From Acidobacteriota bacterium (lineage in GTDB: Bacteria; Acidobacteriota; Blastocatellia; Pyrinomonadales; Pyrinomonadaceae), in NCBI GenBank assembly GCA_041940165.1, contig JBGTSR010000013.1:94797-158796 (forward strand): a stretch of 64,000 bases of DNA. The letters run 5' to 3'. The notes below the pieces were generated by a model that ran no database searches, was not told the origin of the DNA, and worked only from the letters and a program-made list of their open reading frames with translations. The position numbers and the translations under genes were made by a program. This document shows, piece after piece, positions 33,791 through 61,235 of the stretch; position 1 is the stretch's first letter; each line of letters begins with the position of its first letter.

Positions 33791-36700
33791 ATGCCGAAGC
33801 GACGCGTCCGAATCGTTCTGCCGCTACTTTCACGAACAGCCCTCGTGGCGATCCTGCTGGCCATCGCCGTCGTCGCGGTGTATTTATCGCCGTTACGAAC
33901 TCAGATAGTTGCTGCGTTCGCCCGAGAAGTCATAGGCCAAGAGGCTCGTGTCTTGCCGCATCAGGAGCCGACGCCGCCGCGATCGGAGAACGGTGAGGAT
34001 CGTCCCGAAGCGACGTTTACGGTTTCAAATACGAATGACTCCGGTCCGGGTTCGCTGCGGCAAGCGATACTGGATGCAAACGCCGCCGCCGGTGCCGATA
34101 CGATCAACATAACCACAACCGGAACGATCAACCTCGCCAGCGCCTTGCCGGACGTGACACAGTCCACAACCATAACGGGGCCGGGGTCGAATTCCCTGAC
34201 GATCCGGAGAAATACGGGCGGCGACTATCGTGTGCTCGGATTTTCCGGTGCTAACACCTCGTCCATTTCCGGCGTAACCATCTCTAACGGGAATGTAACG
34301 GGCGACGGCGGCGGTATTTTTAGCTCGCAAACGCTGACGATTACGAATTGTACGATCTCCGGAAACACCGCAACTGGTTTCGGCGGTGGGATCGAAAACG
34401 CGGGCACCTTGACCGTTGATCGAAGCACGATCTCGGGAAACACGTCTTTGATAAATCAATCTGGCGGCGGGATCGACAATCTTGGAACGCTGACGGTCCG
34501 CAGTTCAACGATCAGCGGGAATTCGGCCACCTCGGTAAACACCGGTGGAGGAATTTTTTCGTTTGGCGGGACGGTTTCGATCGTCAATTCGACGATCACG
34601 AACAATCAGTCGAACGCGACCGGCGGGGCGGGTGGCGTCAAGGCCGAGAATACCACCGTTACGATCAAAAACAGTATCGTCGCGGCCAATCAATCCAATA
34701 CGACGATACCGGACACGTCGACGGCGGGATCAGGATCGTTCGTGTCGAACGGCTTTAATCTGATCGGCAATCGCGGCGCCGTGACATTTGGCGGGACTTC
34801 GGACCAGAGCGGAACGTCGACACCATTAAATCCGCTCCTTAGTGCGCTCGGCAACAACGGTGATACGACGCAAACACACGCTCTGCTCGGCGGCAGTCCC
34901 GCTCTTGATAAGGGAAGCAACGCCGGTTCCGGCGTGGCGACGGATCAGACCGGCTTCACGAGAACGGTCGATCTCGGCATAGCAAACGCCTCAGGCGGCG
35001 ACGGGACAGATATCGGAGCGGTCGAGATGGCTTCGATACCGAACTGTACGCAGACGCCGGGCGCGATCAGCTTTGGCCAGACGATAAACGGCACTTTGGC
35101 TGCGGGCGATTGCCATTTTAACGTCGTCGCGCCGGCAACCGCAGGAAACTCGGGAGCTCTGTACGATGCCTACACCTTTAGCGGGACCGCAGGCCAGCAG
35201 GTCGCGATCGCGATGACCTCGCCGGCCGGGCCCGCGAACTTTGACACCGTATTGAGGCTATACCAGGGCAGTTTCCCGGGCGGCACCTTCGTAACGGAAA
35301 ATGACGATATCGATGGAGGCAATAACCGAAATTCCCGGATCCCCGTCAACGGCTTCTTCACCCTCCCGTCGACTGCTACCTACACGATCATCGCCAATGC
35401 TTTCTTTGTAGAGCCTACTGGGGCCGGAATCTATTCGCTTAATCTGACGCTCGGCGACTCGACCGCGCCGACGGCGAGCGGAACTGCTCCTAACGTTACG
35501 ACAGCGGGGGCTACGTTGCACACGGCGACGGTTGTTTACACGGACAATGTTGCGATCAATGCCAGCACGGTCGGGATCGGAGATATCAGGATCACCGGGC
35601 CGAACGGATTTGATGTGGCGACAGATTTTCAAAACGTAACGCCGGGCGGCAACGGAACACCGCGAACGGCAAATTACCCTTTCCCCGTACCCGGTGGTTG
35701 GACCTTTGCGAAAAACGGTACGTACAACATCGTCATGCAGACGAATCAGGTCGCGGACACATCGGGCAACTTCGTCGCGGCGGGGACGATCGGGACGTTT
35801 ACGGTAAATATCCCGGCGAGCCCGCAGACGTTCATCGTCACCAATCTAAACAACGACGGCCCGGGCAGCCTGCGTCAGGCGATCCTTGACGCCAACGCCA
35901 ACAGCCCCGCCGCCGATACGATCAATTTCCAGGCGGGATTGAACGGCACGATCTTGTTGACGACGGGGGAACTCGTGATCACCGATGGCGTGACGATCAA
36001 TGGTCCGGGAGCAAGTGTGGTTACAGTCTCGGGTGGAAACGCCAGCAGGATCTTTCGCACAGTCGGTGGTGTGACCGCAAGTATGAACGGCCTTACCTTA
36101 ACCGCCGGGAACGGTGTCGGCGGTTTCGTCAACAATGCGGGAAGCGCCATTTTGAATCAAGGAATATTGAACATATCAAATGCAGTTCTTACAGGTAACA
36201 ACGCACCCTCAAGTGCGGGAACGATCAACTCGCTGGGCACACTAACCTTGACCAATTCCACTATATCTAACAACAGCACCGCATTTGCCGGCGGAGCTAT
36301 TTTCAGCCTTGGCGGTAATATCACAATCGTCAGTTCTGCTGTCACGACCAATACAACAAACGGACTGAGCGGCGGATCTACAAGTGGAGGAATCGCCGTC
36401 CGAGGTGGCTCGCTGACTATTCGTAATTCAACTATCAGTGGAAACACGGCCCCTAACAACGATCAGAATGGTGGCGGTATTCGAGTGGATGATAATTCGA
36501 ACCTTACGATAATCAACAGTACCGTCACTAATAACTCAGCAGCCGGAGTAAGCAGCGCGAGCGGAATTAGTGTTGACGCGACATCGACCGCGACAATACG
36601 AAACACAATAGTCGCGGGAAATCAGAATAGCTCTACACAACCCGACGTGGTCGCCGCCGGTACTGTCACGTCCAATGGGTTCAATCTTATTGGCAATCGG

Positions 36701-39700
36701 GGAACGTTAACGTTCGGAAGCACGGGTGACCAGAGCGGCACCGGCGAATTGCCGCTCAATCCACTCCTCAGCCCGCTCGCAAACAACGGTGGTCCGACGC
36801 AGACTCATGCTCTGCTCGCGGGCAGTCCGGCGATCGATAAGGGAAGCAATTCCGGTTCTGGCGTGACGACGGATCAGCGTGGTTTAACGCGTCCGCGTGA
36901 TCTGGTTGCGATCTCTAATGCATCCGGTGGCGACGGTTCGGACATCGGTGCGTTCGAAGAGCAGAACGAACCTGCCGCCACCCCGCCGACCGCCGTCGGT
37001 ACATCGCCCAACGTTACAACGTCCGGAGTGACATTGCAGACGGTGACCGTGACTTACTCTGACGATGTCGCCGTCGACGTCAGCACCCTCGGTACCGGCG
37101 ATATAACGGTCACGGGCCCTGCACCAACCGCGACGCCGACTTTTGTCAGCTTCAACCCCGGCGGTAACGGAACACCGCGAACCGCGACTTACACCTTCAC
37201 ACCAGTTACCGGCAGGTGGCGGTCTGCTTTCAACGGTACCTATAACATCGTCATGCAGGCGAATCAAGTCGCCGACACGTCGGGCAGCTTTGTCGCGGCG
37301 GGGACGATCGGTTCGTTCACTGTCAACGTGCCTTCGGCGAGAATTGGTGACTTCCTCTGGAGCGATAATGACGCGGACGGCGTCCAAGATGCGGGTGAGC
37401 CCGGGATCGTAGGGGCGTTAATATTTATCGATTCGAACGGGAACGGCGTATTCGATACCGGCGAACCTCAGTCGCAATCCAATTCGCAAGGACTGTACGC
37501 TTTTTCCGACCTCGATCCGGGAAATTACTCCATCCGAGTTAGGACGGTTCCCGCCGGGTTTGTAGCAACGACGGCTGGTGTCCTTAACTTTGTAATTAGC
37601 ACACCGACGCAGATCGTCGACACCGCCGATTTTGGCTTCAGGCTCGTGGTTACCGACCTCTCGGATTCCAGTTCGGGCAGCCTCCGCCAAGCGATACTGA
37701 CCGCCAACGCAAACACTGCCACCGGCGCCGAAGTCATCAGTTTCCAGGCGGGATTGACGGGCACGATCACGCTGACGACCGGCGAAGTCGTGATCGACGG
37801 CAGCATGACCATCAACGGCCCGGGGGCAGGCGTAATAACGGTTTCGGGCAACAATGCAAGCCGCATTTTCCAATTCAACCTCGGTCATACGGTAAGCCTG
37901 GTTGGTTTAACACTGACAGGGGGAAATGGTACCGGCGGAGGCAACGTATCCGGCGGAGCGATCCGAAATAACGCAACCACGACGATATCGAGCGTCGTCA
38001 TTACCGGCAATTCCGCAGTCACAGGCGGTGGAATATCCAGCGGAGGTACGATGACCATTTCGAATAGTTTGATTGCCAATAACTCCGCTGATAACGGCGG
38101 CGGGCTTTTCAGTCAGGAAACTCTTACGATCACAAATTCGACAATCACGGGCAACACCGCCAACTTCCAGGGCGGCGCAATGAATTTACAGAGAAGCAGC
38201 GCGACGTTGATCAATTCGACGATCAGTGGAAATACCGCGAATAGCACGACTTTCCCGGGAGCGATACAGTTTTTTACGACGACCGGAACACGGACTTTGC
38301 AGGTGGTTAATTGCACTGTCGCGAACAACATGACTGGGACACCGAATACCGTTGGCGGAATTTTGGTTACCGGACAAGGAGCCGGCGTCTCCGCGACGGC
38401 CACACTCCGCAACTCGATCATCGCAAACAACGGCCCTATAAACTTGCTTACAACCAGCACAAGCGGAGGAACGGGAACGATAACGTCGCAGGGCTATAAT
38501 CTGGCCAGTGACAATGGAGCAGGTTTTCTTACCGGAACCGGCGATCAAATAAACACCAACCCACTCCTCGGCCCGCTCGCAGACAATGGCGGCCCTACGC
38601 AGACCCATGCTTTGCTCGCCGGCAGTCCGGCGATCGATAAGGGGAGCAATGCGGGTTCGGGAGTGAACACCGATCAACGTGGGTTTCTACGGCCACGCGA
38701 TCTGAATGCGATCTCCAACGCGGTCGAGGGCGACGGCTCTGACATCGGTGCATTCGAAGAGCAGAATGAACCCGCCCCGACGCCGACTCCAACACCAACG
38801 CCGACAGCGACACCAACGCCGACGGCAACACCGACGCCTACGGCCACGCCAACGCCAACGCCAACGGCTATACCAACACCATCGCCGACGCCGACAGCGA
38901 CACCAACACCTACGCCAACGCCGACCGCAACACTAACGCCAACACCAACACCTACGCCGCCACCGGCGAATATTGTAGTTACGAATACAAACGACAGCGG
39001 CCCGGGCAGTTTGCGGCAGGCGATTGTTGATGTTGCTGCGGGCGGGACAATTACGTTTTCATCGTTGTTCAGCGGGCCGGAACAGATAAACGAACCCGAC
39101 GCTCCGCAGACGATCACGCTGACGAGCGGCGAGTTGTTCATAGATAAATCGATGACGATAACCGGGCCGGGTGCAAATCTGTTGACTATTTCGGGTAACA
39201 ACGCGTCGCGGGTATTCAGGATAAACACCGTAACGGTGGCTTTGAGCGGTTTGACGATCACGGGCGGGAACGTCGTCGGCGGCAACGGCGGCGGCGGCAT
39301 CTTCAATTTCGGGAGTCTAACGCTGAGCAACGCGGTCGTTACCCAGAATCAAACAACCAACCGTGCCGGTGGCGGAATTAACCAGTTTGCCGCTGGCAAT
39401 CTAACGATCATCGACTCGACCATTTCAGGCAATACGGCTACAGATGATGGCGGCGGGATACTCTTTAACAATCCCGCAGGCAGTTTTACGGTGACGAATT
39501 CGACCATTAGCGGAAATACCGTGACTTCCAATGGTCAGGGCGGCGGTATTTGGGTCGCAGCCGGAGCCGCGAGTATTACAAATTCAACGATCACGAATAA
39601 TTCAGTTGCGGGATCTGTAAGCACGAGTGGACTCTATCGAAACGCAGGTGCTGTAACTCTTCGCAACAGTATCGTGGCCGGCAATCAGTCCAACTCGGCA

Positions 39701-40303
39701 AAGCCAGATGTGGGCGCCAACGGCGGAACGGGCGTCACCTCAAACGGCTACAACCTGATCGGCAATCCGGGCTCTCTCGCCGTCTTCAACCAGACAGGCG
39801 ACCAAACAGGCAACGGGCCCACACCGCGCGATCCACTCCTCGGCCCGTTGCAAAACAACGGCGGATCGACGCCGACCCACGCTTTGCAAGCCGGAAGTCC
39901 GGCGATCGACGGTGGCAATAGTTCTGGTTCGATCAACGATCAACGCGGCCTCGGATTCTTGCGTGTCGTCGATCTGCTGGCTCCTAACGCCGCTGGCGGT
40001 GACGGTGCGGACATTGGCGCGTTCGAACTGCAAACCGAGCCGCCGCCGGCGACTGCGTCGATCAACGGCCGCGTGCTCACCCCGACGGGCGCCGCGGTAA
40101 GAAATACGCGCGTCAACCTGATCGATCCGCAGGGATTCGTGCGGGTCGCGACTTCGAGCAGCTTTGGAGTGTTCAACTTTACAAATCTGCCGACCGGCCA
40201 GACGTATCTGATAACCGTGACATCGAAACGATTCCGCTTTTCGCCGCGAAACGTTGTGCTAAACGCTGATGTCACCGGGCTCGATCTGTTTGGGCTGGAA
40301 TAG
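33791..40303 (+). CDS. giant (2170 aa) surface/secreted beta-helix repeat protein
   Basis: GGGAGA RBS and an N-terminal TM/signal anchor. Four modules (about 34010-35030, 35822-36965, 37640-38765, 38969-40035) each start with [11 protein letters not shown](L/V)D and end with [19 protein letters not shown]...GDG.DIGAFE. The interior is made of NxTISGN-type beta-helix turns. Also present: a PPC-like domain, a duplicated Ig-like domain, an SdrD-B-like domain, a PT linker, and a CarboxypepD_reg-like C-terminus. Confidence 0.9.
38774..38968 (+). repeat. Pro-Thr(Ala) linker encoded by near-periodic ACN-CCN repeats inside the giant gene
   Basis: Translates to [63 protein letters not shown]. The DNA is a 6-nt quasi-repeat. 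Confidence 0.9.
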
Positions 40304-40340: not shown

Positions 40341-42041
40341 CTAGCCTTCGATCTTGGAATCCACGATCGCGAGGATCTCTTGTTCGTGCCTGATCGCTTC
40401 GTCGCGGATAGTCTCCGCTTTTCGAAGCATATTGGCGGCGAATGCCTTGTCTTTCAAGCCCGCGGCGTTGATCTTGACGTTGAGGAACGCTCCAAGGACA
40501 GATGATCGGGCACAGAGGGCTCCGACGCCTGCGTCTGAAACGGAATTCGGGTTTCCCTCTTCGGCCATCGCCCTGATGACCTCGAACGACGCGAGAGCCG
40601 CTTCCATTGTGCGGAATGGCACTTCGGTGGCATAACGTGTAGCGGCCTGAATTGCATCCGTTCGAGCGGCTTTTTCTTCCTCGGTGCCTTTGGGCAAGCC
40701 GAATGCGTCCATCACGCGGTTGAATGAGTCGGTGTCCTCATCAACGAGGGCGAGCAGTTCGTTCTTGAGTTCCTGAGCTCGCACCGCGTGGTCGGAGAAC
40801 TCTTCCCAACGCTCATCCCAACCGGCTTTGTGCGCCGAGAGATTGGCGACCATCGCCGCAAGTGCGGCACCTAGCGCTCCAAGATAGGCCGATATCGAAC
40901 CGCCGCCCGGGGCGGGCGATTCAGACGCCGTTTCGTCGGCAAACTCGCGGCCGGTGAGGTCGATCAGGCGTTTGGGGGCAGAATCGGCTTCGAGTACGTA
41001 CTCGATGATCTTTTCGTTGGGAATAAAGGGCTTAAGGTCGTCGAGCCCCATCGATTTAATGGCGATCTTGACGATCTCAGACTCTGTGATCCCGATCGAT
41101 CTCCCCTGTTTGGCGAGATAATGCTTACCCGCATCGATGATGGCTTTCTTAGGCACGAGCCCGACGATCTCGAGTCCGGTCACACGAATTCCGCGCGCTC
41201 TCGCCTTTTCACTCACCTCGTCGAACGCAATGTGCAGCGGTGTTTGCGAGAGATTGGTGATATTCATCGACACCTGCGCGATGCCGTACTCGTCGATGTA
41301 CCAGCCGATCGCTTTCGTGCCTTTGAGCGTGCCCGGGATGAGAACTGGCTCGCCGTTCTCGTCGAGGACAGGCTTGCCGGTGATCGGGTTTCCTTCGCGT
41401 TTGACGCGGCCTTTTTCGCGAACGTCGAATGCAACTGCATTCGCACGGCGGGTAGATGTAGTGTTGAGATTGAAATTAACGGCTATCAGGAAATCGCGGG
41501 CCCCGACGGCAGTCGCTCCGGAACGAGCGACGCTTTCGGTGAATTGACTTGGGCCGAAATCGGGCCGCCATTCGGAGCTCGCGATCTTGTCTTTCAGGCC
41601 TTCGTATTCGCCCGCACGGCAGTTTGCTAGGTTTCGACGTTTCTCCTCGCCAGCAGCGTTTTCGTACAGGTAGATGGGAATTTGAAGCTCGTCGCCGATG
41701 CGTTTACCAAGCTGACGGGCGTATTCGGCCGTTTCCTCCATCGAAACGCCCGCGATCGGGACGAGAGGCAGCACATCGGTCGCCCCAAAACGCGGATGGT
41801 CGCCTCTGTGGCGACGCATGTCGATCACTTCCTGAGCTTTCTTAACGGCCTGGAACGCGGCCTCGACCACAGCTTCCGGTTCGCCAACGAACGTGACGAC
41901 AGTCCGATTGGTCGTAAAACCGGGATCGACATCGAGCAGTTTGACGCCTTCGACACGTTCGATAACGTCCGTGATCTGCTTGATGACGGACATATCGCGT
42001 CCCTCACTAAAGTTCGGAACGCATTCGATAAGTCGTTTCAT
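40341..42041 (-). CDS. ftcD: bifunctional glutamate formimidoyltransferase / formimidoyltetrahydrofolate cyclodeaminase
   Basis: The N-terminus LIECVPNFSEGRD is the formimidoyltransferase signature. The C-terminal ~200 aa is an all-helical cyclodeaminase-like domain (SPAPGGGS...). Confidence 0.9.
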   Translation of the reverse strand: MKRLIECVPNFSEGRDMSVIKQITDVIERVEGVKLLDVDPGFTTNRTVVTFVGEPEAVVEAAFQAVKKAQEVIDMRRHRGDHPRFGATDVLPLVPIAGVSMEETAEYARQLGKRIGDELQIPIYLYENAAGEEKRRNLANCRAGEYEGLKDKIASSEWRPDFGPSQFTESVARSGATAVGARDFLIAVNFNLNTTSTRRANAVAFDVREKGRVKREGNPITGKPVLDENGEPVLIPGTLKGTKAIGWYIDEYGIAQVSMNITNLSQTPLHIAFDEVSEKARARGIRVTGLEIVGLVPKKAIIDAGKHYLAKQGRSIGITESEIVKIAIKSMGLDDLKPFIPNEKIIEYVLEADSAPKRLIDLTGREFADETASESPAPGGGSISAYLGALGAALAAMVANLSAHKAGWDERWEEFSDHAVRAQELKNELLALVDEDTDSFNRVMDAFGLPKGTEEEKAARTDAIQAATRYATEVPFRTMEAALASFEVIRAMAEEGNPNSVSDAGVGALCARSSVLGAFLNVKINAAGLKDKAFAANMLRKAETIRDEAIRHEQEILAIVDSKIEG

Positions 42042-42071
42042 TACTTGTTTTAGATAATATTAGCTGAGACT

Positions 42072-42821
42072 TTACGTGACAGCTCCGCCGTCGACGATGA
42101 CGATCTCGCCGCTCATAAAGCTGTTGCGGTCGCTCGACATAAACGCGGCGATCTCAGCGAGTTCATGCGGCTGGCCCTGGCGGCCTTTGGCGACCCAATG
42201 GTCGTGGATCGCGAGCAGGCGTTCGGGCAGGGTGTGCCCAAGGTCGGTGTCAAAAATACCCGCCGCGATCGCGTTCACCGAGATGCCGAAATTAGCAGCT
42301 TCCCGCGAAAGACACTTGGTAAATCCGATCATCGCCGCTTTCGAAGTCGCATAGTGAACCGATGTTGGCAAGCTGCGTATCGCCCCGACCGAGGTGATAT
42401 TCACGATCGAACCGCCACGCGCACGGATCATCTGCTTATAAAAGGGTTTCGTGACCGCAAAAAGGCTATTGACGTTGGTATCAACTACCCAATCCCAGCT
42501 TTTGTCGGTCGTCGTTGCGAAATTGTCGCCTTTGTTGACCGCGGCGTTGTTCACGAGAACGTTTACCGGCCCCCACGCGTCCATTATCTCGCGGGCGATG
42601 TGCTTCATACCGTAGCGGTCCGTGACCGAGACCTTGTAGCTCAAGGCACGTCGGCCATGGGCCTCGATCTTTGCCCGCACCTGATCGGCGAGATCGTCGC
42701 TCGAGTGATAGTTGAACGCTACATCTGCGCCTTCGCGGGCAAAGACCTCGCAAATCGCTGCCCCGATGCCGCGCGTGCCGCCCGATACGAACGCACGTTT
42801 TCCTTCTAGTAAAAGGCTCAA
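42072..42821 (-). CDS. SDR-family oxidoreductase (FabG-like)
   Basis: GGTRGIG cofactor motif, NNAA, and catalytic YATSK. Confidence 0.9.
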   Translation of the reverse strand: MSLLLEGKRAFVSGGTRGIGAAICEVFAREGADVAFNYHSSDDLADQVRAKIEAHGRRALSYKVSVTDRYGMKHIAREIMDAWGPVNVLVNNAAVNKGDNFATTTDKSWDWVVDTNVNSLFAVTKPFYKQMIRARGGSIVNITSVGAIRSLPTSVHYATSKAAMIGFTKCLSREAANFGISVNAIAAGIFDTDLGHTLPERLLAIHDHWVAKGRQGQPHELAEIAAFMSSDRNSFMSGEIVIVDGGAVT

Positions 42822-42908
42822 GTTCTTAGACTTCTCCGTCGTTAGGGATCCAAAAGGAAAGGTTAAATAAAACCGAAGTAAGTAACAAGTCGCTGGAATT
42901 GAAAAGCG

Positions 42909-44087
42909 TCAGGCCGCGACCCGTTCCGCAGTGAAAGGATATGGCAAAATGGCGTTGATCTCACGAATTATCTGATCGGTGGAATTTGGCATCGTCATGC
43001 CTATCGTCGCCTCCTTCATTCGGAAATAGCGCTCGCGGTCGGCCACCAGATCCCGAAGCGTCGGTACGATATCGGTACTTCGGTGAAGCAAAATACCGGC
43101 TCCGCGTTTTTCGAGAAGCTTTACTGTTCCGGCTTCCTGCGGCATCGGAGGCGTTGTCGCGTCGGCTATGATCGGCAGACGGCATGCCAGGGCCTCGAAC
43201 GTAGTGAGGCCGCCGAGTTTCGATACCATAACGTTTGCCGAGTGCATCAGGCGTTCGATCTCGTCCGAATAACCGATGACCTTGACCGGGAATTTCGCCT
43301 GGCTCGCGAGTGTCTCGGCTTCGATTCGAAGCTGCTCATTTTTTCCTGCAAGAAAGATCGCTTGAACATCCAATTCTCCGCGAATCAACTCGCGGAAGAT
43401 CTGCGGAATATTGCCGCCGCCGACCCAACCCGCGTTCAAAAACACCGTGAACTTGTCGGGGTCGAGGCCGTAGAAGCGGCGTGCCTCCTGGGCATCTTGC
43501 TCCTCGACCTCGCGGAACTTGGGATTGACCGGCATGCCCGAGATCTTTATCTTTTCCGGCGAAACGCCGTAATCGAGTAGCTGCTCACGCGCATCTTCGT
43601 TGGCGACTAGATAAAGCGAAACATCATCACACGCCCAGCCTTTCCAAAAGCCGTAACATGGATCAGTTACAACAGTTACGAGCGGAACCTGATCGGTAAG
43701 ATTAAGTTCTCGAAGGATGCGTGCAAAGATATGCTGAGTCAGCGGATGAACGCTGACGACCACGTGCGGGCACCATTTTTCGAACTGATCGCGGATGTAT
43801 CCGGTACACCGCTTCATGAAAAACTCCCGCGTCTCGGGCCTGATCTTGTTCACCGTCCAATACAGGAATTTCATCCAGTGCTGACGGTTTGTGAGAACCC
43901 AGTTATAAAGACGTACGAGTTTGTCGGTGATGTGATGCGAATCTTCGACGCCCTTGATGATCTTCACGACCGACGAATCGCTGCTCCAGACACGCTGAAA
44001 CCCATCCGCGATCGCCTGGGCGGCCGAGCGATGCCCGCCACCGGTGTCAGATGAGATGATCAGGATCTTTGGAGTGTTAGGCTGCAT
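42909..44087 (-). CDS. MGDG-synthase/UgtP-like (GT28-type) diacylglycerol glycosyltransferase
   Basis: N-terminal ILIISSDTGGGHRSAAQAI, VTVVTDP, and the C-terminal GT-B motif ...SKLGGLTTFEALACRLPII...QE. Confidence 0.85.
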   Translation of the reverse strand: MQPNTPKILIISSDTGGGHRSAAQAIADGFQRVWSSDSSVVKIIKGVEDSHHITDKLVRLYNWVLTNRQHWMKFLYWTVNKIRPETREFFMKRCTGYIRDQFEKWCPHVVVSVHPLTQHIFARILRELNLTDQVPLVTVVTDPCYGFWKGWACDDVSLYLVANEDAREQLLDYGVSPEKIKISGMPVNPKFREVEEQDAQEARRFYGLDPDKFTVFLNAGWVGGGNIPQIFRELIRGELDVQAIFLAGKNEQLRIEAETLASQAKFPVKVIGYSDEIERLMHSANVMVSKLGGLTTFEALACRLPIIADATTPPMPQEAGTVKLLEKRGAGILLHRSTDIVPTLRDLVADRERYFRMKEATIGMTMPNSTDQIIREINAILPYPFTAERVAA

Positions 44088-44092
44088 CCTAT

Positions 44093-44314
44093 CTAGTCAA
44101 GCGGTTTTGGCGGCCTCGCCTTACAGTAAGCACATTCTGGGTCGCCGCAAGCACGCTCAAGCCATTCATTGCATTCCGCACAAAAGAATGCGTCATGCTC
44201 GTCGGAATATATCCGTGGGTTTGTACAACGGGAACAGACTTCATCGTCGATAAATCCATCGTACTCCTGGCCGTCGATGCGTACGGTTCCCTCATCCTCT
44301 CGTACTATCGGCAC
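44093..44314 (-). CDS. small Cys-rich zinc-ribbon-like protein (73 aa)
   Basis: Seven Cys arranged as CxxC-x14-CxxC-x7-C-x4-C-x2-C. The stop is 5 nt upstream of the glycosyltransferase ATG. The only available start is GTG and there is no clear SD, so confidence is moderate. Confidence 0.55.
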   Translation of the reverse strand: MPIVREDEGTVRIDGQEYDGFIDDEVCSRCTNPRIYSDEHDAFFCAECNEWLERACGDPECAYCKARPPKPLD

Positions 44315-44561
44315 GATGTTTTGGTGTGGTGGGATTTCAACCCACTTGCGGCTCTTTCACTCACAATTTTTCGGATTTAAACACCGGCGTATCAGCGCTC
44401 TATTATTCGCCGGATCGTGAGCTAAGTCTTCTGAAGAGCTGTTCGGTATATCTCCGCTGGGTTACGCGTCCCATCGAGCTCGCTGACTTCATTTCAGGCA
44501 TGCTTGCCCACCTCTCACTCATGCGGTTCGCACCCGCTGCACACCAAAGCTAATTTTGCTT

Positions 44562-45722
44562 CTAAGCTTTCAGAGCAACTTCCCTTCCCGTTACGAAGCC
44601 GGCCGATTTTGCGGCCTTTTTCATCTGTTTTTCGAGCTTCTTTATCTTGACGAGATGCCCGGCGTTGAACGGCAGCGACGGATAGAAGCAGTTCGACTCG
44701 TGGGTGCAGTAACAGCCGTCGGCGACCTCTTTGCGGCGTTCTTTCATCAAGTCAGACTTCCACGCGGCCTGAAAATCCCACTCGAAGTCACGCAGATTGA
44801 GCACGTCTTCCTTGTTCTCGCAGGACGAAAGTGCCCCGTTGTCATAGATCACGGCCCCTGCCGAGCCGGCGTAGCATTTGAGCTGAGCCTTTTCCTCTTC
44901 CTTGGTCTTGGCGATGACGTCGTGCATGTAGATGTCGACCGCCGCTTTGAAGAAACCGCTGTCGCCGCCGTAATTATTCTTGAGAGCGGCGCTCTTCGTG
45001 TCCTCGAGGATCATGTTCGAGAGTTGCTGATAGCGACGATGGTCGAATTCCAGCTCGATCGGGTCGGCGGACGGAGGCCTGATGTAATTAATATTTACCT
45101 TGTCCGGTTTCAAGTCGTGCTTGAGGAAGTCGTACCAGTCGAAGATCGTCTCTTCGTTCGAATGCATCACGCAGGTGCACGTCTGAATATCGAGTCGCGG
45201 ATACTGCTCTTTCTTCATCTGCTGGAGCGTGCGGGCCGTGTGGATCGCCTTGTCCCAGCTTCCCTCTTTGCGGCGGATCTTTTCGTGGGCGTCCTTCATC
45301 CCGTCAATGCCGAGGGCGACCGAAACGTTCAGGTTCGGGCATTCGTCCATGATGCGGGCGACGTCTGGGAAAATTCGCGGATGGATCTGGCCGTTCGACA
45401 TCAAATAAACGCTGTCGAGCTTGTTGTTTTCGTAAAACGCACGAACGATCTCGGGCAGGTCTTTGCGCGTGAATGGCTCGCCGCCGGCGAGCACGAGCAC
45501 GCCGAGATTCCCGCCCAGAGTCTCAGAGATACGGGCGATCTCGTCGGTTTTCATCTGCAGCTTCTTACGCGGCCGATCATCCAGCTCCTCCGTAAAAAAG
45601 CAGTGCGTGCAACGCATATCACACACACTCGTGACCAGAATATTCAGAAACACCGGCGATATCGGCTTCCCGATCAAAATACTCGCCCAGCGCTTAAAGA
45701 CCTCTTTTGTAGCAAAATCCAT
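44562..45722 (-). CDS. radical SAM enzyme with a SPASM/twitch-like C-terminal cysteine motif
   Basis: CDMRCTHC (CxxxCxxC) near the N-terminus. C-terminal C-x12-G-x4-C ... CxCx5C. Start set at ATG 45722, preceded by an AGGTGA RBS. Confidence 0.85.
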   Translation of the reverse strand: MDFATKEVFKRWASILIGKPISPVFLNILVTSVCDMRCTHCFFTEELDDRPRKKLQMKTDEIARISETLGGNLGVLVLAGGEPFTRKDLPEIVRAFYENNKLDSVYLMSNGQIHPRIFPDVARIMDECPNLNVSVALGIDGMKDAHEKIRRKEGSWDKAIHTARTLQQMKKEQYPRLDIQTCTCVMHSNEETIFDWYDFLKHDLKPDKVNINYIRPPSADPIELEFDHRRYQQLSNMILEDTKSAALKNNYGGDSGFFKAAVDIYMHDVIAKTKEEEKAQLKCYAGSAGAVIYDNGALSSCENKEDVLNLRDFEWDFQAAWKSDLMKERRKEVADGCYCTHESNCFYPSLPFNAGHLVKIKKLEKQMKKAAKSAGFVTGREVALKA

Positions 45723-45897
45723 TATTCTCACCTGTCCGATCTGCGAACGCACGATAAGATGCACCCGCACTTCTCCAAGTTACACATTACTTTATCGGCA
45801 GGGTTTTGGAAAGCGAGAGGATTCGACGTTCAAGACCGCCTACATTGGCGGAAAACCGCTTATCCAAAACATTTCTTGGAAAAGGTCGCGAAAACGG

Positions 45898-45926
45898 TTG
45901 ATAAACATTTTTTATCGTGCTATAAG
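45898..45926 (+). promoter_or_regulatory. candidate sigma70 promoter of the M43 peptidase gene
   Basis: TTGATA (45898-45903), 17 nt, TATAAG (45921-45926). An AAGGAG RBS lies at 46009-46014. Confidence 0.4.
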
Positions 45927-46021
45927 CTATCCGTTCGAATTGCTTTCCTGGCCGTGCCGACCCCGACTCGCGCCACTGAATTCTTACAAAAACGAAACCA
46001 AAAAATTCAAGGAGTGAGGAT

Positions 46022-47011
46022 ATGAAGACGAAGGTTCTACTGTCATTGACGGCAGCGATCTTGCTTGGCGGTTTTGCATTTGGTGTATTTTACGGCCCGA
46101 CGGCACAGGTCGGTGCTCAGAGTACAAAAGACGACCCGGCTCCGGTCGATACGGTGAAAGATGACGAGCCATATACGTTCAATGGCTACACGTGGGCCAG
46201 CAAGAAAGAGTTCATGGACTACGGCAGATGTACGACCAAGATCTTGAGCGAGCCTGAGATGGACCAGATCGAGCGCGAGGTCGACATCGCCCGCGAAAAT
46301 CGCAAATCGGCAAATAGCGGTTTTGAAATGAACGCTACGGGTGGAACGATCCCGGTTTACATCCACGTAATTCGAAACAGTTCCGGCGGTGGCGACGTCT
46401 CGGACAGCCGTATCGCACAGCAGATGGCGGTGCTCAATAACGCGTTTGCAAGTACCGGATGGGGCTTCAGCCTTGTTGGCACGACACGCACAGACAATTC
46501 GACCTGGTACACATGTTCCGGCGGCTCCTGCGAATCGCAGATGAAGAACGCCCTGCGTCAAGGCACTGCAGACGATCTGAATATTTACCTGAACAACATG
46601 GGCGGCGGTCTGCTCGGTTGGGCGACGTTCCCGTCGAGTTACGCGGGTAATCCGAAGAACGACGGGGTCGTAGTTCTTTCAGCCTCGCTTCCGGGTGGAT
46701 CTGCGGCTCCGTACAACCTCGGCGACACGGCAACGCACGAGGTCGGTCACTGGATGGGCCTTTATCACACATTCCAGGGCGGCTGCGCACGCAATGCTAC
46801 GAGCGGCGGCGACCTGGTCTCGGATACACCGGCCGAAAAATCGCCTGCTTACGGATGCCCGACCGGCCGCGACAGCTGCCGCAACATCGCCGGCCTCGAC
46901 CCGATCACCAACTTCATGGACTACACCGACGACGCCTGCATGAATACCTTCTCGGCCGGCCAGGACGCCCGCATGGATTCCCTGTTCACGACCTATCGTT
47001 TCGGAAAATAA
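46022..47011 (+). CDS. secreted M43-family (pappalysin/ulilysin-like) zinc metallopeptidase
   Basis: Signal peptide and the metzincin motif [13 protein letters not shown] (HExxHxxGxxH). Confidence 0.85.
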
Positions 47012-47457: not shown

Positions 47458-48285
47458 CTAGTCGCGGGCGGCAAGACGGATCTTTGTTGCCCAGCCGAGG
47501 CGTTCGAAGAGTCGGATCGTGGCCCAGTTCATATCAAATTGGTACCATTTCAGGCCGTGCCGGGCTGAGGTTGGGAAGGCGTGGTGATTGTTGTGCCAGC
47601 CTTCGCCAAACGTTAGGATCGCCACGAACCAATTATTGGTGGAAAGGTCGTTTGTCTTGTGCGGGCGTTTGCCGTAAAGGTGCGAGAGCGAATTGACGAA
47701 CCACGTCGTGTGCCAGCCCACGACCACGCGTCCGAAAACACCCCAGACAACCATGGTCCAGCCGCCGATAGCAAACAAGATGGCAGCTGAGATAATGATC
47801 GGCACGTAGTAGTAGCGCGAGATCAGGACCTGCCCTTTATCTTTCAGAAGGTCGGGTACGTATTTGCGGATCGTCGCCGTATCGTGGTCCTGGGCCGTTC
47901 CCCAAACGATCCAGCCGATCTGCGCCCACCAAAATCCCGGACGGCTCGAATGCGGGTCTTTGTCAGTCTCGACGAACGCATGATGGATGCGATGCGTCGC
48001 TACCCATTTGTCGGGCGGGTCCTGCATCGACATCGTTCCCAGGATCGTGAGGCAGTACTCAAGCCATTTCGGCGCTTTAAAGCTTCTATGCGTCAGCAGA
48101 CGATGCCAGCCCAGACCGACGCCGAGGCTGCCGACGATCCAATTGCCGATCAAAAGGGCCGCGAGGTTCTGCCAACTGAACGTGAAGAAAAGCGGAATCG
48201 CGAGCAGATGGAATGATGCGAGCATCGCAACGTTCTTCCAATTGATACCCGCGCGCGATGTTTCGAGATCGTGAATATTTTGCAT
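47458..48285 (-). CDS. membrane acyl-CoA/acyl-lipid (delta-9-type) fatty acid desaturase
   Basis: Three histidine boxes (HRLLTH, HRIHH, HNNHH) with TM segments between them. Confidence 0.9.
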   Translation of the reverse strand: MQNIHDLETSRAGINWKNVAMLASFHLLAIPLFFTFSWQNLAALLIGNWIVGSLGVGLGWHRLLTHRSFKAPKWLEYCLTILGTMSMQDPPDKWVATHRIHHAFVETDKDPHSSRPGFWWAQIGWIVWGTAQDHDTATIRKYVPDLLKDKGQVLISRYYYVPIIISAAILFAIGGWTMVVWGVFGRVVVGWHTTWFVNSLSHLYGKRPHKTNDLSTNNWFVAILTFGEGWHNNHHAFPTSARHGLKWYQFDMNWATIRLFERLGWATKIRLAARD

Positions 48286-60725: not shown

Positions 60726-61235
60726 ATGGTCGATATTTTTAAGCCTGAAGAAAAGAAAAGTGGTCCTAACACGACCCTTATTGTCGGCGTTCTCATTGGC
60801 CTGGTCGCGATCGGCGCCGCGATCGGCTTGCTAATGCTCCAGCCATCGTCCGAGGAGCAGGTCGCAAATATGCTCGCGGGCGTCTATCGTGAAGGCTCGC
60901 CCGAATTCGATCAATATCAAAAGGACATCGTCATTTCGACGTCAAACGATACCGTGCAGTCGCCGACCGGCCTCGGCACGATCTCGATGTTTATCAAAGG
61001 CCAAATACGTAATCGCGGCCAGCGGACTTACGACGCCCTCGAGGTTAATGTCGCCGTCGTCACGCAATTCAACGTCGTTCTGAGAGAGCGACGAGTCCTG
61101 GTCGTACCCGTCCAACGTTCGACAATCGGCCCTGGCGAGACGATTCCGATCACGCTTTCGCTCGAAGGTTTTTCGCCCGAAGACGACCGTGCCAACATCC
61201 GCTGGAAAGTGACAGCGATCAAACCCGTTTCTTAA
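60726..61235 (+). CDS. hypothetical membrane-anchored protein
   Basis: Single N-terminal TM helix (LIVGVLIGLVAIGAAIGLLML) followed by a beta-rich ectodomain. No motif recognised. Confidence 0.55.
   Translation: MVDIFKPEEKKSGPNTTLIVGVLIGLVAIGAAIGLLMLQPSSEEQVANMLAGVYREGSPEFDQYQKDIVISTSNDTVQSPTGLGTISMFIKGQIRNRGQRTYDALEVNVAVVTQFNVVLRERRVLVVPVQRSTIGPGETIPITLSLEGFSPEDDRANIRWKVTAIKPVS

Follow-up and report, generated by a model that had tools for sequence, protein, structure and literature searches.

The closest described counterparts of the locus analysed here are systems in which a radical S-adenosylmethionine (SAM) enzyme remodels a sugar or a membrane lipid. Cds, the calditol synthase of Sulfolobus, and HpnJ, which belongs with HpnI and HpnK to the hopanoid cyclitol-ether system, are radical SAM enzymes whose substrate is a hexose on a lipid, which they remodel once a glycosyltransferase (GT) has acted (PMC13459092). 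In antibiotic pathways, AprD4, a diol dehydratase of the radical SAM type, acts on a sugar and works with the NADPH-dependent reductase AprD3 (PMC5461906); the substrates of AprD4/AprD3, DesII and BlsE are soluble aminoglycosides or nucleotide sugars. Tes/GDGT-MAS and Mss are radical SAM enzymes with auxiliary Fe–S clusters that act on membrane lipids. We analysed a gene group on the minus strand of a 64,000-nucleotide (nt) stretch of DNA (the window) from an Acidobacteriota bacterium of the family Pyrinomonadaceae (assembly GCA_041940165.1, contig JBGTSR010000013.1, positions 94,797 to 158,796), which encodes a radical SAM enzyme, a GT and a short-chain dehydrogenase/reductase (SDR). This operon has the GT plus radical SAM gene logic in common with Cds and HpnI/HpnK/HpnJ (PMC13459092) and differs from them by its dedicated SDR; Cds is likened to it by described gene logic, not by sequence. 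We conclude that the module is an uncharacterized variant of a known logic, lipid tailoring by a GT and a radical SAM enzyme, and we tentatively prefer the reading that a membrane glycolipid is made and tailored by it. In soil and wastewater, Pyrinomonadaceae and Blastocatellia are common, and their unusual ether and membrane-spanning lipids feed the branched glycerol dialkyl glycerol tetraether (brGDGT) proxies of palaeoclimate. The radical SAM enzyme, universal and about 90% identical within the family and tied to a GT and a reductase, makes the operon a compact three-gene target.

The radical SAM gene occupies positions 44562–45722 and encodes 386 amino acids (aa) from an ATG; a GTG further upstream, at 45770, would extend this to 402 aa, but the ATG is favoured, relatives being mostly 386–390 aa long. 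Downstream on the same strand are the gene for a GT28-family GT of the MGDG-synthase/UgtP type (42909–44087; 392 aa, N-terminus MQPNTPKILIISSDTGGGHRSAAQAI) and that for a classical FabG-like SDR (42072–42821; 249 aa), followed by ftcD (40341–42041). Pfam searches of the locus proteins returned Radical_SAM, MGDG_synth with GT28-C, adh_short_C2 and three FTCD domains, the last in the ftcD product. An earlier sequence-only reading of this DNA had described these open reading frames (ORFs) and their cysteine motifs, and we found all of them as described on the minus strand; the SDR gene also lies where it was placed, at a distance from the GT gene that we measured as 87 nt and not 88 nt.

We detected the same gene order across the family. 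Conservation was assessed in 80 species-level genome loci of Pyrinomonadaceae, with denominators that count the loci with enough sequence; the scan of genome contigs used a single protein as query and returned close relatives alone. The proteins nearest to those of the window come from metagenome-assembled genomes of Pyrinomonadaceae/Blastocatellia, that is, Acidobacteria subdivision 4. In 68 of 68 loci the radical SAM gene is directly followed by the GT gene in the same orientation, at a distance of 9–50 nt in 35 of 74, and the SDR gene lies downstream of the GT gene in 58 of 61, mostly 83–160 nt away. Identity to the window copy is 86–94% for the radical SAM enzyme (median 89%, 80 genomes), 71–86% for the GT (median 78%) and 79–94% for the SDR (median 87%). 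The higher median of the radical SAM enzyme compared with the GT indicates a strongly constrained core function for the former. Neither ftcD nor the genes for an M43 peptidase, a desaturase (47458) and a sulfatase-domain protein (61232) are conserved neighbours in the related loci. What is conserved, we conclude, is an operon of three genes (radical SAM, GT28 GT and SDR) whose linkage is tight and ancient. The proposal that the radical SAM enzyme and the MGDG-synthase-like GT form a functional pair is thus supported by the pair's retention in every relative with enough sequence and in a second, distant lineage, and the SDR joins them as a third member. A wider trio, which had included a 73-aa cysteine-rich ORF between the two genes, holds for the radical SAM and GT genes and fails for the ORF, which has no counterpart in the 80 genomes.

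The second lineage is represented by the P0127/P0273 clade, whose 454-aa radical SAM proteins are 36–37% identical to that of the window and carry the motif CYCTHESSC. Two of its loci (L092 and L093) have the full order, a radical SAM gene, an MGDG_synth GT gene (product 52% identical) and an SDR gene (62% identical), and two more (L094 and L087) have the radical SAM gene followed by the GT gene. The order of conservation seen within Pyrinomonadaceae, with the radical SAM enzyme above the GT (89% versus 78%), is reversed between the two lineages (37% versus 52% and 62%), which suggests shifted constraints on the radical SAM enzyme or a non-orthologous replacement inside the same family. In L092 (8001–12888) the trio is followed by a TPR lipoprotein gene and by Fe–S assembly genes of the HesB/IscA type (PF01521) and NifU (PF01106), which might have a part in maturing the radical SAM enzyme.

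Gene fusions occur among remoter relatives. P0126, 38% identical to the window enzyme and bearing the family motif CFCTHExxC, is a radical SAM–GT2 fusion; downstream of its gene come a GDSL lipase-like gene and a further radical SAM gene. An N-terminal GT2 domain is present in P0204, P0248, P0261 and P0267, and a WecG/TagA GT26 domain in P0199 (E ≈ 1e-37 to 1e-41 to the window enzyme); the GT2 fusions occur at either end. P0305 (E ≈ 1e-22 to P0127) is fused to LPG_synthase_TM, a lipid-flippase-like membrane domain, and its operon (L096 748–9115) contains GT2, GT4, NAD-dependent epimerase/reductase and Metallophos genes; P0125 similarly adjoins Metallophos and NAD-epimerase genes. These contexts point to a large, uncharacterized radical SAM family tied to membrane glycoconjugates; it has hundreds of members, is repeatedly fused to GTs and includes no characterized representative. 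The three genes could instead be neighbours that share no pathway, their order being merely a conserved trait of one family. P0121, at 67% identity, has no adjacent GT gene and some 35%-identical relatives stand alone, as this explanation would predict; it is nonetheless very improbable given the recurrence of the three-gene order in the second lineage at 37% radical SAM identity, the radical SAM–GT spacers of as little as 9–25 nt and the independent GT fusions in relatives.

The protein encoded at 44562–45722 is a member of the radical SAM superfamily, with a CxxxCxxC motif (C34-D-M-R-C38-T-H-C41) inside a PF04055 core (E = 6e-17; 62.7 bits, where the cut-off is 29.5); Fer4_12 is the other Pfam domain. 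In a 64-sequence family alignment the three cysteines of this motif are invariant, as are C283 and C301 of C283-x12-G296-x4-C301, in which G296 is nearly so, and the cysteines of the terminal C337-x-C339-x5-C345 are invariant or nearly invariant, giving the family signature CxxxCxxC ... C-x12-G-x4-C ... C-x-C-T-H-E-x2-C. The AlphaFold2 (AF2) model (pLDDT 91) consists of a radical SAM barrel, a twitch-type β-hairpin at residues 289–299, with strands 289–292 and 297–299, and helices. The C-x9-15-G-x4-C pattern that flanks such a hairpin in twitch and SPASM modules is present. Neither the query nor its close relatives contain the CX2CX5CX3C of a full SPASM domain, and Pfam did not report PF13186. 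The enzyme is therefore of the twitch, or partial-SPASM, class and most likely binds one auxiliary cluster, because its terminal motif is CxCx5C and not the SPASM motif. No membrane segment was predicted, and the secondary structure of the AF2 model is that of a soluble α/β fold.

The radical SAM enzyme belongs, by profile comparison, to an uncharacterized family and to no named one. Among the best 25 of 53 NCBIfam matches listed, no model reached its cut-off (best TIGR04133, 61 bits against 425), nor did any of the 30–38%-identical relatives reach an NCBIfam cut-off; a placement in a family of known unrelated function, which would have undone the sequence-only reading, was thus not found. Assignments to HpnH, MoaA, NirJ/Ahb, anSME and viperin were rejected, all being far under their NCBIfam cut-offs. 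In a set of 1.84 billion cluster representatives, a single cluster holds the Pyrinomonadaceae proteins; full-length relatives come next at 35–38% identity, and scores below 1e-30 were obtained for 365 representatives. The clade seems to be limited to Pyrinomonadaceae and a single distant lineage. Foldseek and profile searches of the PDB gave a generic likeness (TM 0.5–0.6, about 15% identity) to SkfB, SuiB, BlsE, DesII, MoaA, EpeE, viperin and anSME, with the sugar-modifying BlsE and DesII level with the peptide maturases at Foldseek ranks 3–10.

The GT matches PF06925 over the full profile (E = 8e-22) and the GT28 C-terminal domain PF04101 (E = 4e-6), the two domains that it shares, over its full length, with UgtP/YpfP, a processive diacylglycerol glucosyltransferase, and plant MGD1. 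Its only PDB relatives are these diacylglycerol glycosyltransferases, UgtP (9wde) and MGD1 (4wyi), at E ≈ 1e-32, and it is a GT28 diacylglycerol glycosyltransferase of the MGD1/UgtP type. The model for diglucosyl-diacylglycerol synthase (NF010135) gives it 162.5 bits, far below the equivalog cut-off of 500, which places it, by score, in the UgtP family but in a different orthologous group and a separate subfamily. We predict that it glycosylates diacylglycerol or a glycerolipid of a similar kind. Coupling to a radical SAM enzyme is not known for either UgtP or MGD1. The SDR (PF13561, E = 6e-56) scores 206 bits with the FabG equivalog TIGR01830 (cut-off 297.75), which identifies it at the profile level as a classical, generic FabG-like SDR below FabG equivalog level. 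Because the only solved relatives of the GT are UgtP and MGD1, the module as a whole is best regarded as lipid-related, as had been proposed in general terms.

We infer the substrate and chemistry of the operon from the synteny, the trio in the second lineage, the fusions to GT and lipid domains, the GT family, the likeness to BlsE and DesII, the precedents and the constraint on the radical SAM enzyme, and on this basis we favour, with less than even confidence, the synthesis and tailoring of a membrane glycolipid. By family membership, the GT would use a UDP-sugar as hexose donor and, as acceptor, diacylglycerol or the alkyl-acyl-glycerols that are typical of subdivision-4 Acidobacteria. The radical SAM enzyme, with its single SAM-binding [4Fe-4S] cluster and probably a single auxiliary one on C283/C301/C337/C339/C345, would then abstract a hydrogen atom from the lipid-linked sugar, with oxidation, dehydration or rearrangement to follow; the GT would act before it by analogy with Cds and HpnI/HpnJ. 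The SDR would reduce the carbonyl left by the radical step, as AprD3 is coupled to AprD4; the operon would share with that pair a radical SAM enzyme for a sugar and an NAD(P)H-dependent reductase (PMC5461906). It differs from AprD4/AprD3, DesII and BlsE, to which identity is about 15%, in being a core gene set with a lipid GT. If head-group tailoring of this kind is right, the product would be a bacterial radical-SAM-tailored glycolipid, a counterpart of calditol and cyclitol-ether chemistry, and the enzymology would be new.

Several points weigh against this glycolipid assignment. The main polar lipids reported for Pyrinomonas are phosphatidylethanolamine and phosphatidylcholine, not glycolipids (PMC4644332). 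The link between the genes and the putative product is one of genomic context. Nor is the radical SAM enzyme a homologue of HpnJ: Pfam found no B12-binding domain in it, the HpnJ model was not among the best 25 of 53 NCBIfam matches, and the GT, a GT28 enzyme of the diacylglycerol type, is unlike HpnI. In structure the enzyme is no closer to radical SAM enzymes that modify sugars than to those that modify peptides, the SDR could equally work on an acyl chain, and P0121 lacks the adjacent GT. Finally, linkage to a lipid GT is equally compatible with chemistry on the lipid tails.

The sugar could also be modified before transfer, with the radical SAM enzyme and SDR making an unusual UDP-sugar from a nucleotide sugar in solution, as DesII and BlsE do, and the GT passing it to diacylglycerol. 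BlsE and DesII are indeed among the best structural matches, NAD-dependent genes of the sugar-nucleotide epimerase/dehydratase type occur in related operons, and no membrane segment is predicted for the radical SAM enzyme. The same low level of structural similarity extends, however, to many families, the fusions to LPG_synthase_TM and to GTs that use lipid-linked acceptors point to membrane-bound substrates, and the module contains no conserved nucleotidyltransferase or other sugar-activation gene. We consider this donor-side route unlikely.

Chemistry on the hydrocarbon chains of the glycerolipid supplied by the GT is what remains of an earlier proposal, in which the radical SAM enzyme, with the small cysteine-rich protein as its partner, would couple, methylate or cyclize acyl chains. 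Without the small protein, the options are tail-to-tail coupling to iso-diabolic acid, mid-chain methylation or an ether-bond step, with the SDR taking a carbonyl intermediate. The biology of the group invites such a view. Iso-diabolic acid and glycerol ethers are plentiful in subdivision-4 Acidobacteria (PMC4644332), and the family to which the window organism belongs makes membrane-spanning iso-diabolic acid lipids (PMC13159169). Acidobacteria have no Mss homologue (PMC13159169; 10.64898/2026.02.09.704826): a search at E ≤ 1e-50 and ≥30% identity found no Mss homologues in acidobacterial genomes, including those of subdivision 4, and its authors infer an alternative, convergent acidobacterial pathway (PMC13159169), and a 2026 preprint discusses Mss, Ger and PlsA alone (10.64898/2026.02.09.704826). 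Auxiliary clusters are a feature of the radical SAM enzymes Tes, Mss and Gms (PMC13459092), and the module studied here is universal and very highly conserved in Pyrinomonadaceae, its radical SAM gene being physically tied to a GT with a lipid acceptor.

Comparison with archaeal Tes/GDGT-MAS, however, revealed a profile and structural likeness limited to the radical SAM core. The Tes model NF045702 gives 34.1 bits against a cut-off of 450 and aligns with residues 24–174 only; matches to GDGT-MAS (7tol) cover residues ~18–112, the region of the SAM cluster, and in Foldseek it ranks 26th (TM 0.42, 247 columns). The window enzyme is also shorter than Tes (386 versus ~490–526 aa), without the N-terminal domain of ~100 residues, and has fewer C-terminal cysteines, five in number, which do not make up a full two-cluster SPASM; it has no B12 domain of the kind that a class B methylase would require. 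The recurrent fusions of the family are to GTs, not to lipid-tail enzymes. Its nearest out-of-clade relatives are ≤38% identical and stand in varied contexts, which would not suit a synthase common to subdivisions 1, 3, 4 and 6. Positive evidence for coupling, methylation or cyclization of acyl chains was not found, the likeness to Tes being that of the generic core, and the acyl-chain coupling idea is unsupported. We therefore regard tail chemistry as unlikely, whichever of its options is taken; if true, it would likewise be new enzymology. Its strong form would make the radical SAM enzyme the missing oxygen-tolerant subdivision-4 enzyme for membrane-spanning or ether lipids, through tail-to-tail coupling of iso-C15 chains to iso-diabolic acid or a glycerol-ether step on glycolipids that the GT supplies. 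This is quite unlikely, more so than tail chemistry in general; if it held, a route to brGDGT-type lipids would have evolved independently of Tes and Mss.

Between the radical SAM and GT genes of the window lies the 73-aa ORF (44093–44314, minus strand), with a GTG start and seven cysteines in the pattern C27xxC30-x14-C45xxC48-x7-C56-x4-C61-x2-C64; its distance of 5 nt from the GT gene was reproduced. Pfam gave a weak A2L zinc-ribbon match and no other, and tblastn found no counterpart in the 80 related loci. An initial word-index protein search came back empty, a false negative of limited sensitivity, and a tblastn search of plasmids found one homologue: the megaplasmid pMEGANia of Niallia taxi carries a 74-aa ORF that is 49% identical over its full length and keeps all seven cysteines (E = 8e-11). 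The ORF is unannotated there (L095 5001–5225, NZ_CP102590.1 80921–81136), and its neighbourhood contains no radical SAM gene and no GT gene; searches of phages and PHROGs found no homologue of the 73-aa protein. Because the full-length Niallia homologue retains the seven cysteines, the 73-aa ORF is a real gene, and the homologue answers the objection that the ORF might have none. The two ORFs represent a rare family of small zinc ribbons common to Bacillota and Acidobacteriota for which there is no Pfam model.

The GC content at third codon positions (GC3) of the 73-aa ORF is 0.51, against 0.64–0.74 for its neighbours. We conclude that it is strain-specific cargo in the radical SAM–GT junction and lies outside the conserved module. 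Its absence from relatives, the variability of the slot that it occupies, its odd GC3 and the foreign context of its homologue remove it both as a rubredoxin-like partner of the radical SAM enzyme and as the precursor of a ribosomally synthesized and post-translationally modified peptide (RiPP), the two roles that had been proposed for it.

As a RiPP precursor, the ORF would be cross-linked by the radical SAM enzyme and then glycosylated. The SPASM/twitch maturases SkfB, SuiB, CteB and PqqE share the core and the C-x12-G-x4-C hairpin module with the window enzyme and include its best profile and Foldseek matches, SkfB and SuiB among them, and the small cysteine-rich ORF adjoins the radical SAM gene. 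These maturases differ from it, however, in having a RiPP recognition element (RRE) or leader-binding domain, a conserved precursor gene and CX2CX5CX3C. In the AF2 model only ~25 residues, forming one helix, precede the cluster motif, so that there is no N-terminal peptide-recognition domain, whereas the aligned regions of SkfB, SuiB and CteB in the profile search start at residues 106, 123 and 90. In the related genomes the radical SAM and GT genes are always present without the ORF, and where the two are <50 nt apart there is no space for a precursor. The Niallia homologue has neither gene beside it. The paired CxxC motifs of the ORF are spaced as in a folded zinc ribbon, which bears out the earlier preference for such a fold over a leader–core peptide. 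With the synteny data, the RiPP interpretation is effectively refuted, and we give it almost no credence.

The junction that holds the 73-aa ORF is an insertion hot spot across the family. Among the radical SAM–GT spacers of loci L001–L083, those of <50 nt (35 of 74) are often 9–25 nt long, ~25 are of ~450–490 nt and contain either HicB/HicA toxin–antitoxin pairs, which are of three kinds or more, or the gene for a Uma2-family nuclease of 158 aa, and ~10 are of 660–750 nt with a 216–220-aa Uma2 nuclease or TPR lipoprotein gene (for example, L001 9159–9622, L004 7159–7625, L007 7159–7819, L023 7159–7646 and L046 7159–7908). The inserts always share the orientation of the operon. Cargo has thus landed repeatedly in this one slot, between two tightly linked operon genes.

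Upstream of the 73-aa ORF, a 247-nt ORF-free, non-coding spacer (44315–44561, minus strand) separates it from the 3′ end of the radical SAM gene. Most of this gap is filled by an element of ~225–230 nt (44317–44547, minus strand) that is 85–87% identical to the entire ORF-free radical SAM–GT spacer of three relatives (L049 6315–6545, L053 1372–1600 and L058 1930–2159). A fifth copy occurs at the same position in a metagenome locus (L090 1931–2162). The copies score 247–278 bits with a covariance model, and their common fold has 61 predicted pairs in 11 helices, with 98% of cells paired across the five copies. Ten pairs show compensatory changes, a number reached by none of 500 shuffles (slid controls gave 0–1), and conserved G–U pairs fix the strand, placing the RNA on the sense strand of the operon. 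A closing helix of 7–8 bp (UGGUGUG/CACACCA) encloses a D-arm-like hairpin (GCGG/CCGC), a 38-nt hairpin with a covarying tip, a multi-helix domain of ~136 nt and a T-arm-like hairpin (GUGGG-UUGAAAU-CCCAC, with the loop UUCAAAU in one copy); the internal helices amount to ~170 nt. The element begins 7–40 nt after the radical SAM stop codon and ends 5–8 nt before the next start codon, which is that of the GT gene in four genomes and that of the 73-aa ORF in the window.

The element resembles tRNA-like or RNase P-substrate intercistronic RNAs and cis-regulatory leaders in having a closing helix beside a 5-bp hairpin with a T-loop-like 7-nt loop, and in lying inside a polycistronic transcript directly before a start codon. 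It differs from tRNA in having ~170 nt of extra helices in place of the anticodon and variable region, and in lacking U8, G18G19 and CCA. ARAGORN and the Rfam models did not recognize it as a tRNA or tmRNA: 901 nt searched against 4,227 models gave no Rfam match at E ≤ 1 and no ARAGORN hit, and the element alone at E ≤ 10 gave a chance-level 13.7-bit uup match and no other. When the window and 87 loci were searched with the covariance model, no copy turned up outside the radical SAM–GT spacer; a viral scan found none and a metagenome scan the one added copy. The RNA is known from this single locus in five genomes, and even the closest relatives of the window (94% radical SAM identity) are without it. 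Because of this patchy distribution, it behaves like the other occupants of the slot. We regard it as a new candidate structured RNA, tRNA-shaped and intercistronic. Its tRNA-like outline suggests a hypothetical role as a signal for RNase P-type processing or stabilization, and its position suggests that it might control translation of the downstream gene.

Other features of the surrounding DNA lie outside the module. A scan of 41900–46100 for promoters and terminators gave no more sites than shuffled sequence and is therefore uninformative on operon structure. The two nearby genes that had been cited as further lipid functions are real, a desaturase (47458–48285, PF00487) and, at 61232, an ORF with a sulfatase/EptA-type domain by domain search, but their synteny with the module did not hold in relatives, and the desaturase has no match in any related locus. 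In relative OLB17 a block of Aminotran_5, GGDEF-EAL and S9 peptidase genes abuts the radical SAM gene directly, whereas in the window ~5.6 kb including the desaturase gene separates the two. Antisense to the radical SAM gene is a 489-aa ORF (44556–46025, plus strand) without support, the usual by-product of high GC3 (0.74) on the opposite strand. Just downstream of ftcD, on the opposite strand, 33791–40303 (plus) encodes a secreted-looking protein of 2,170 aa with right-handed β-helix-type 'TISGN/TITNN' repeats, DxDGxxD-like modules and a long (TPTP)n linker.

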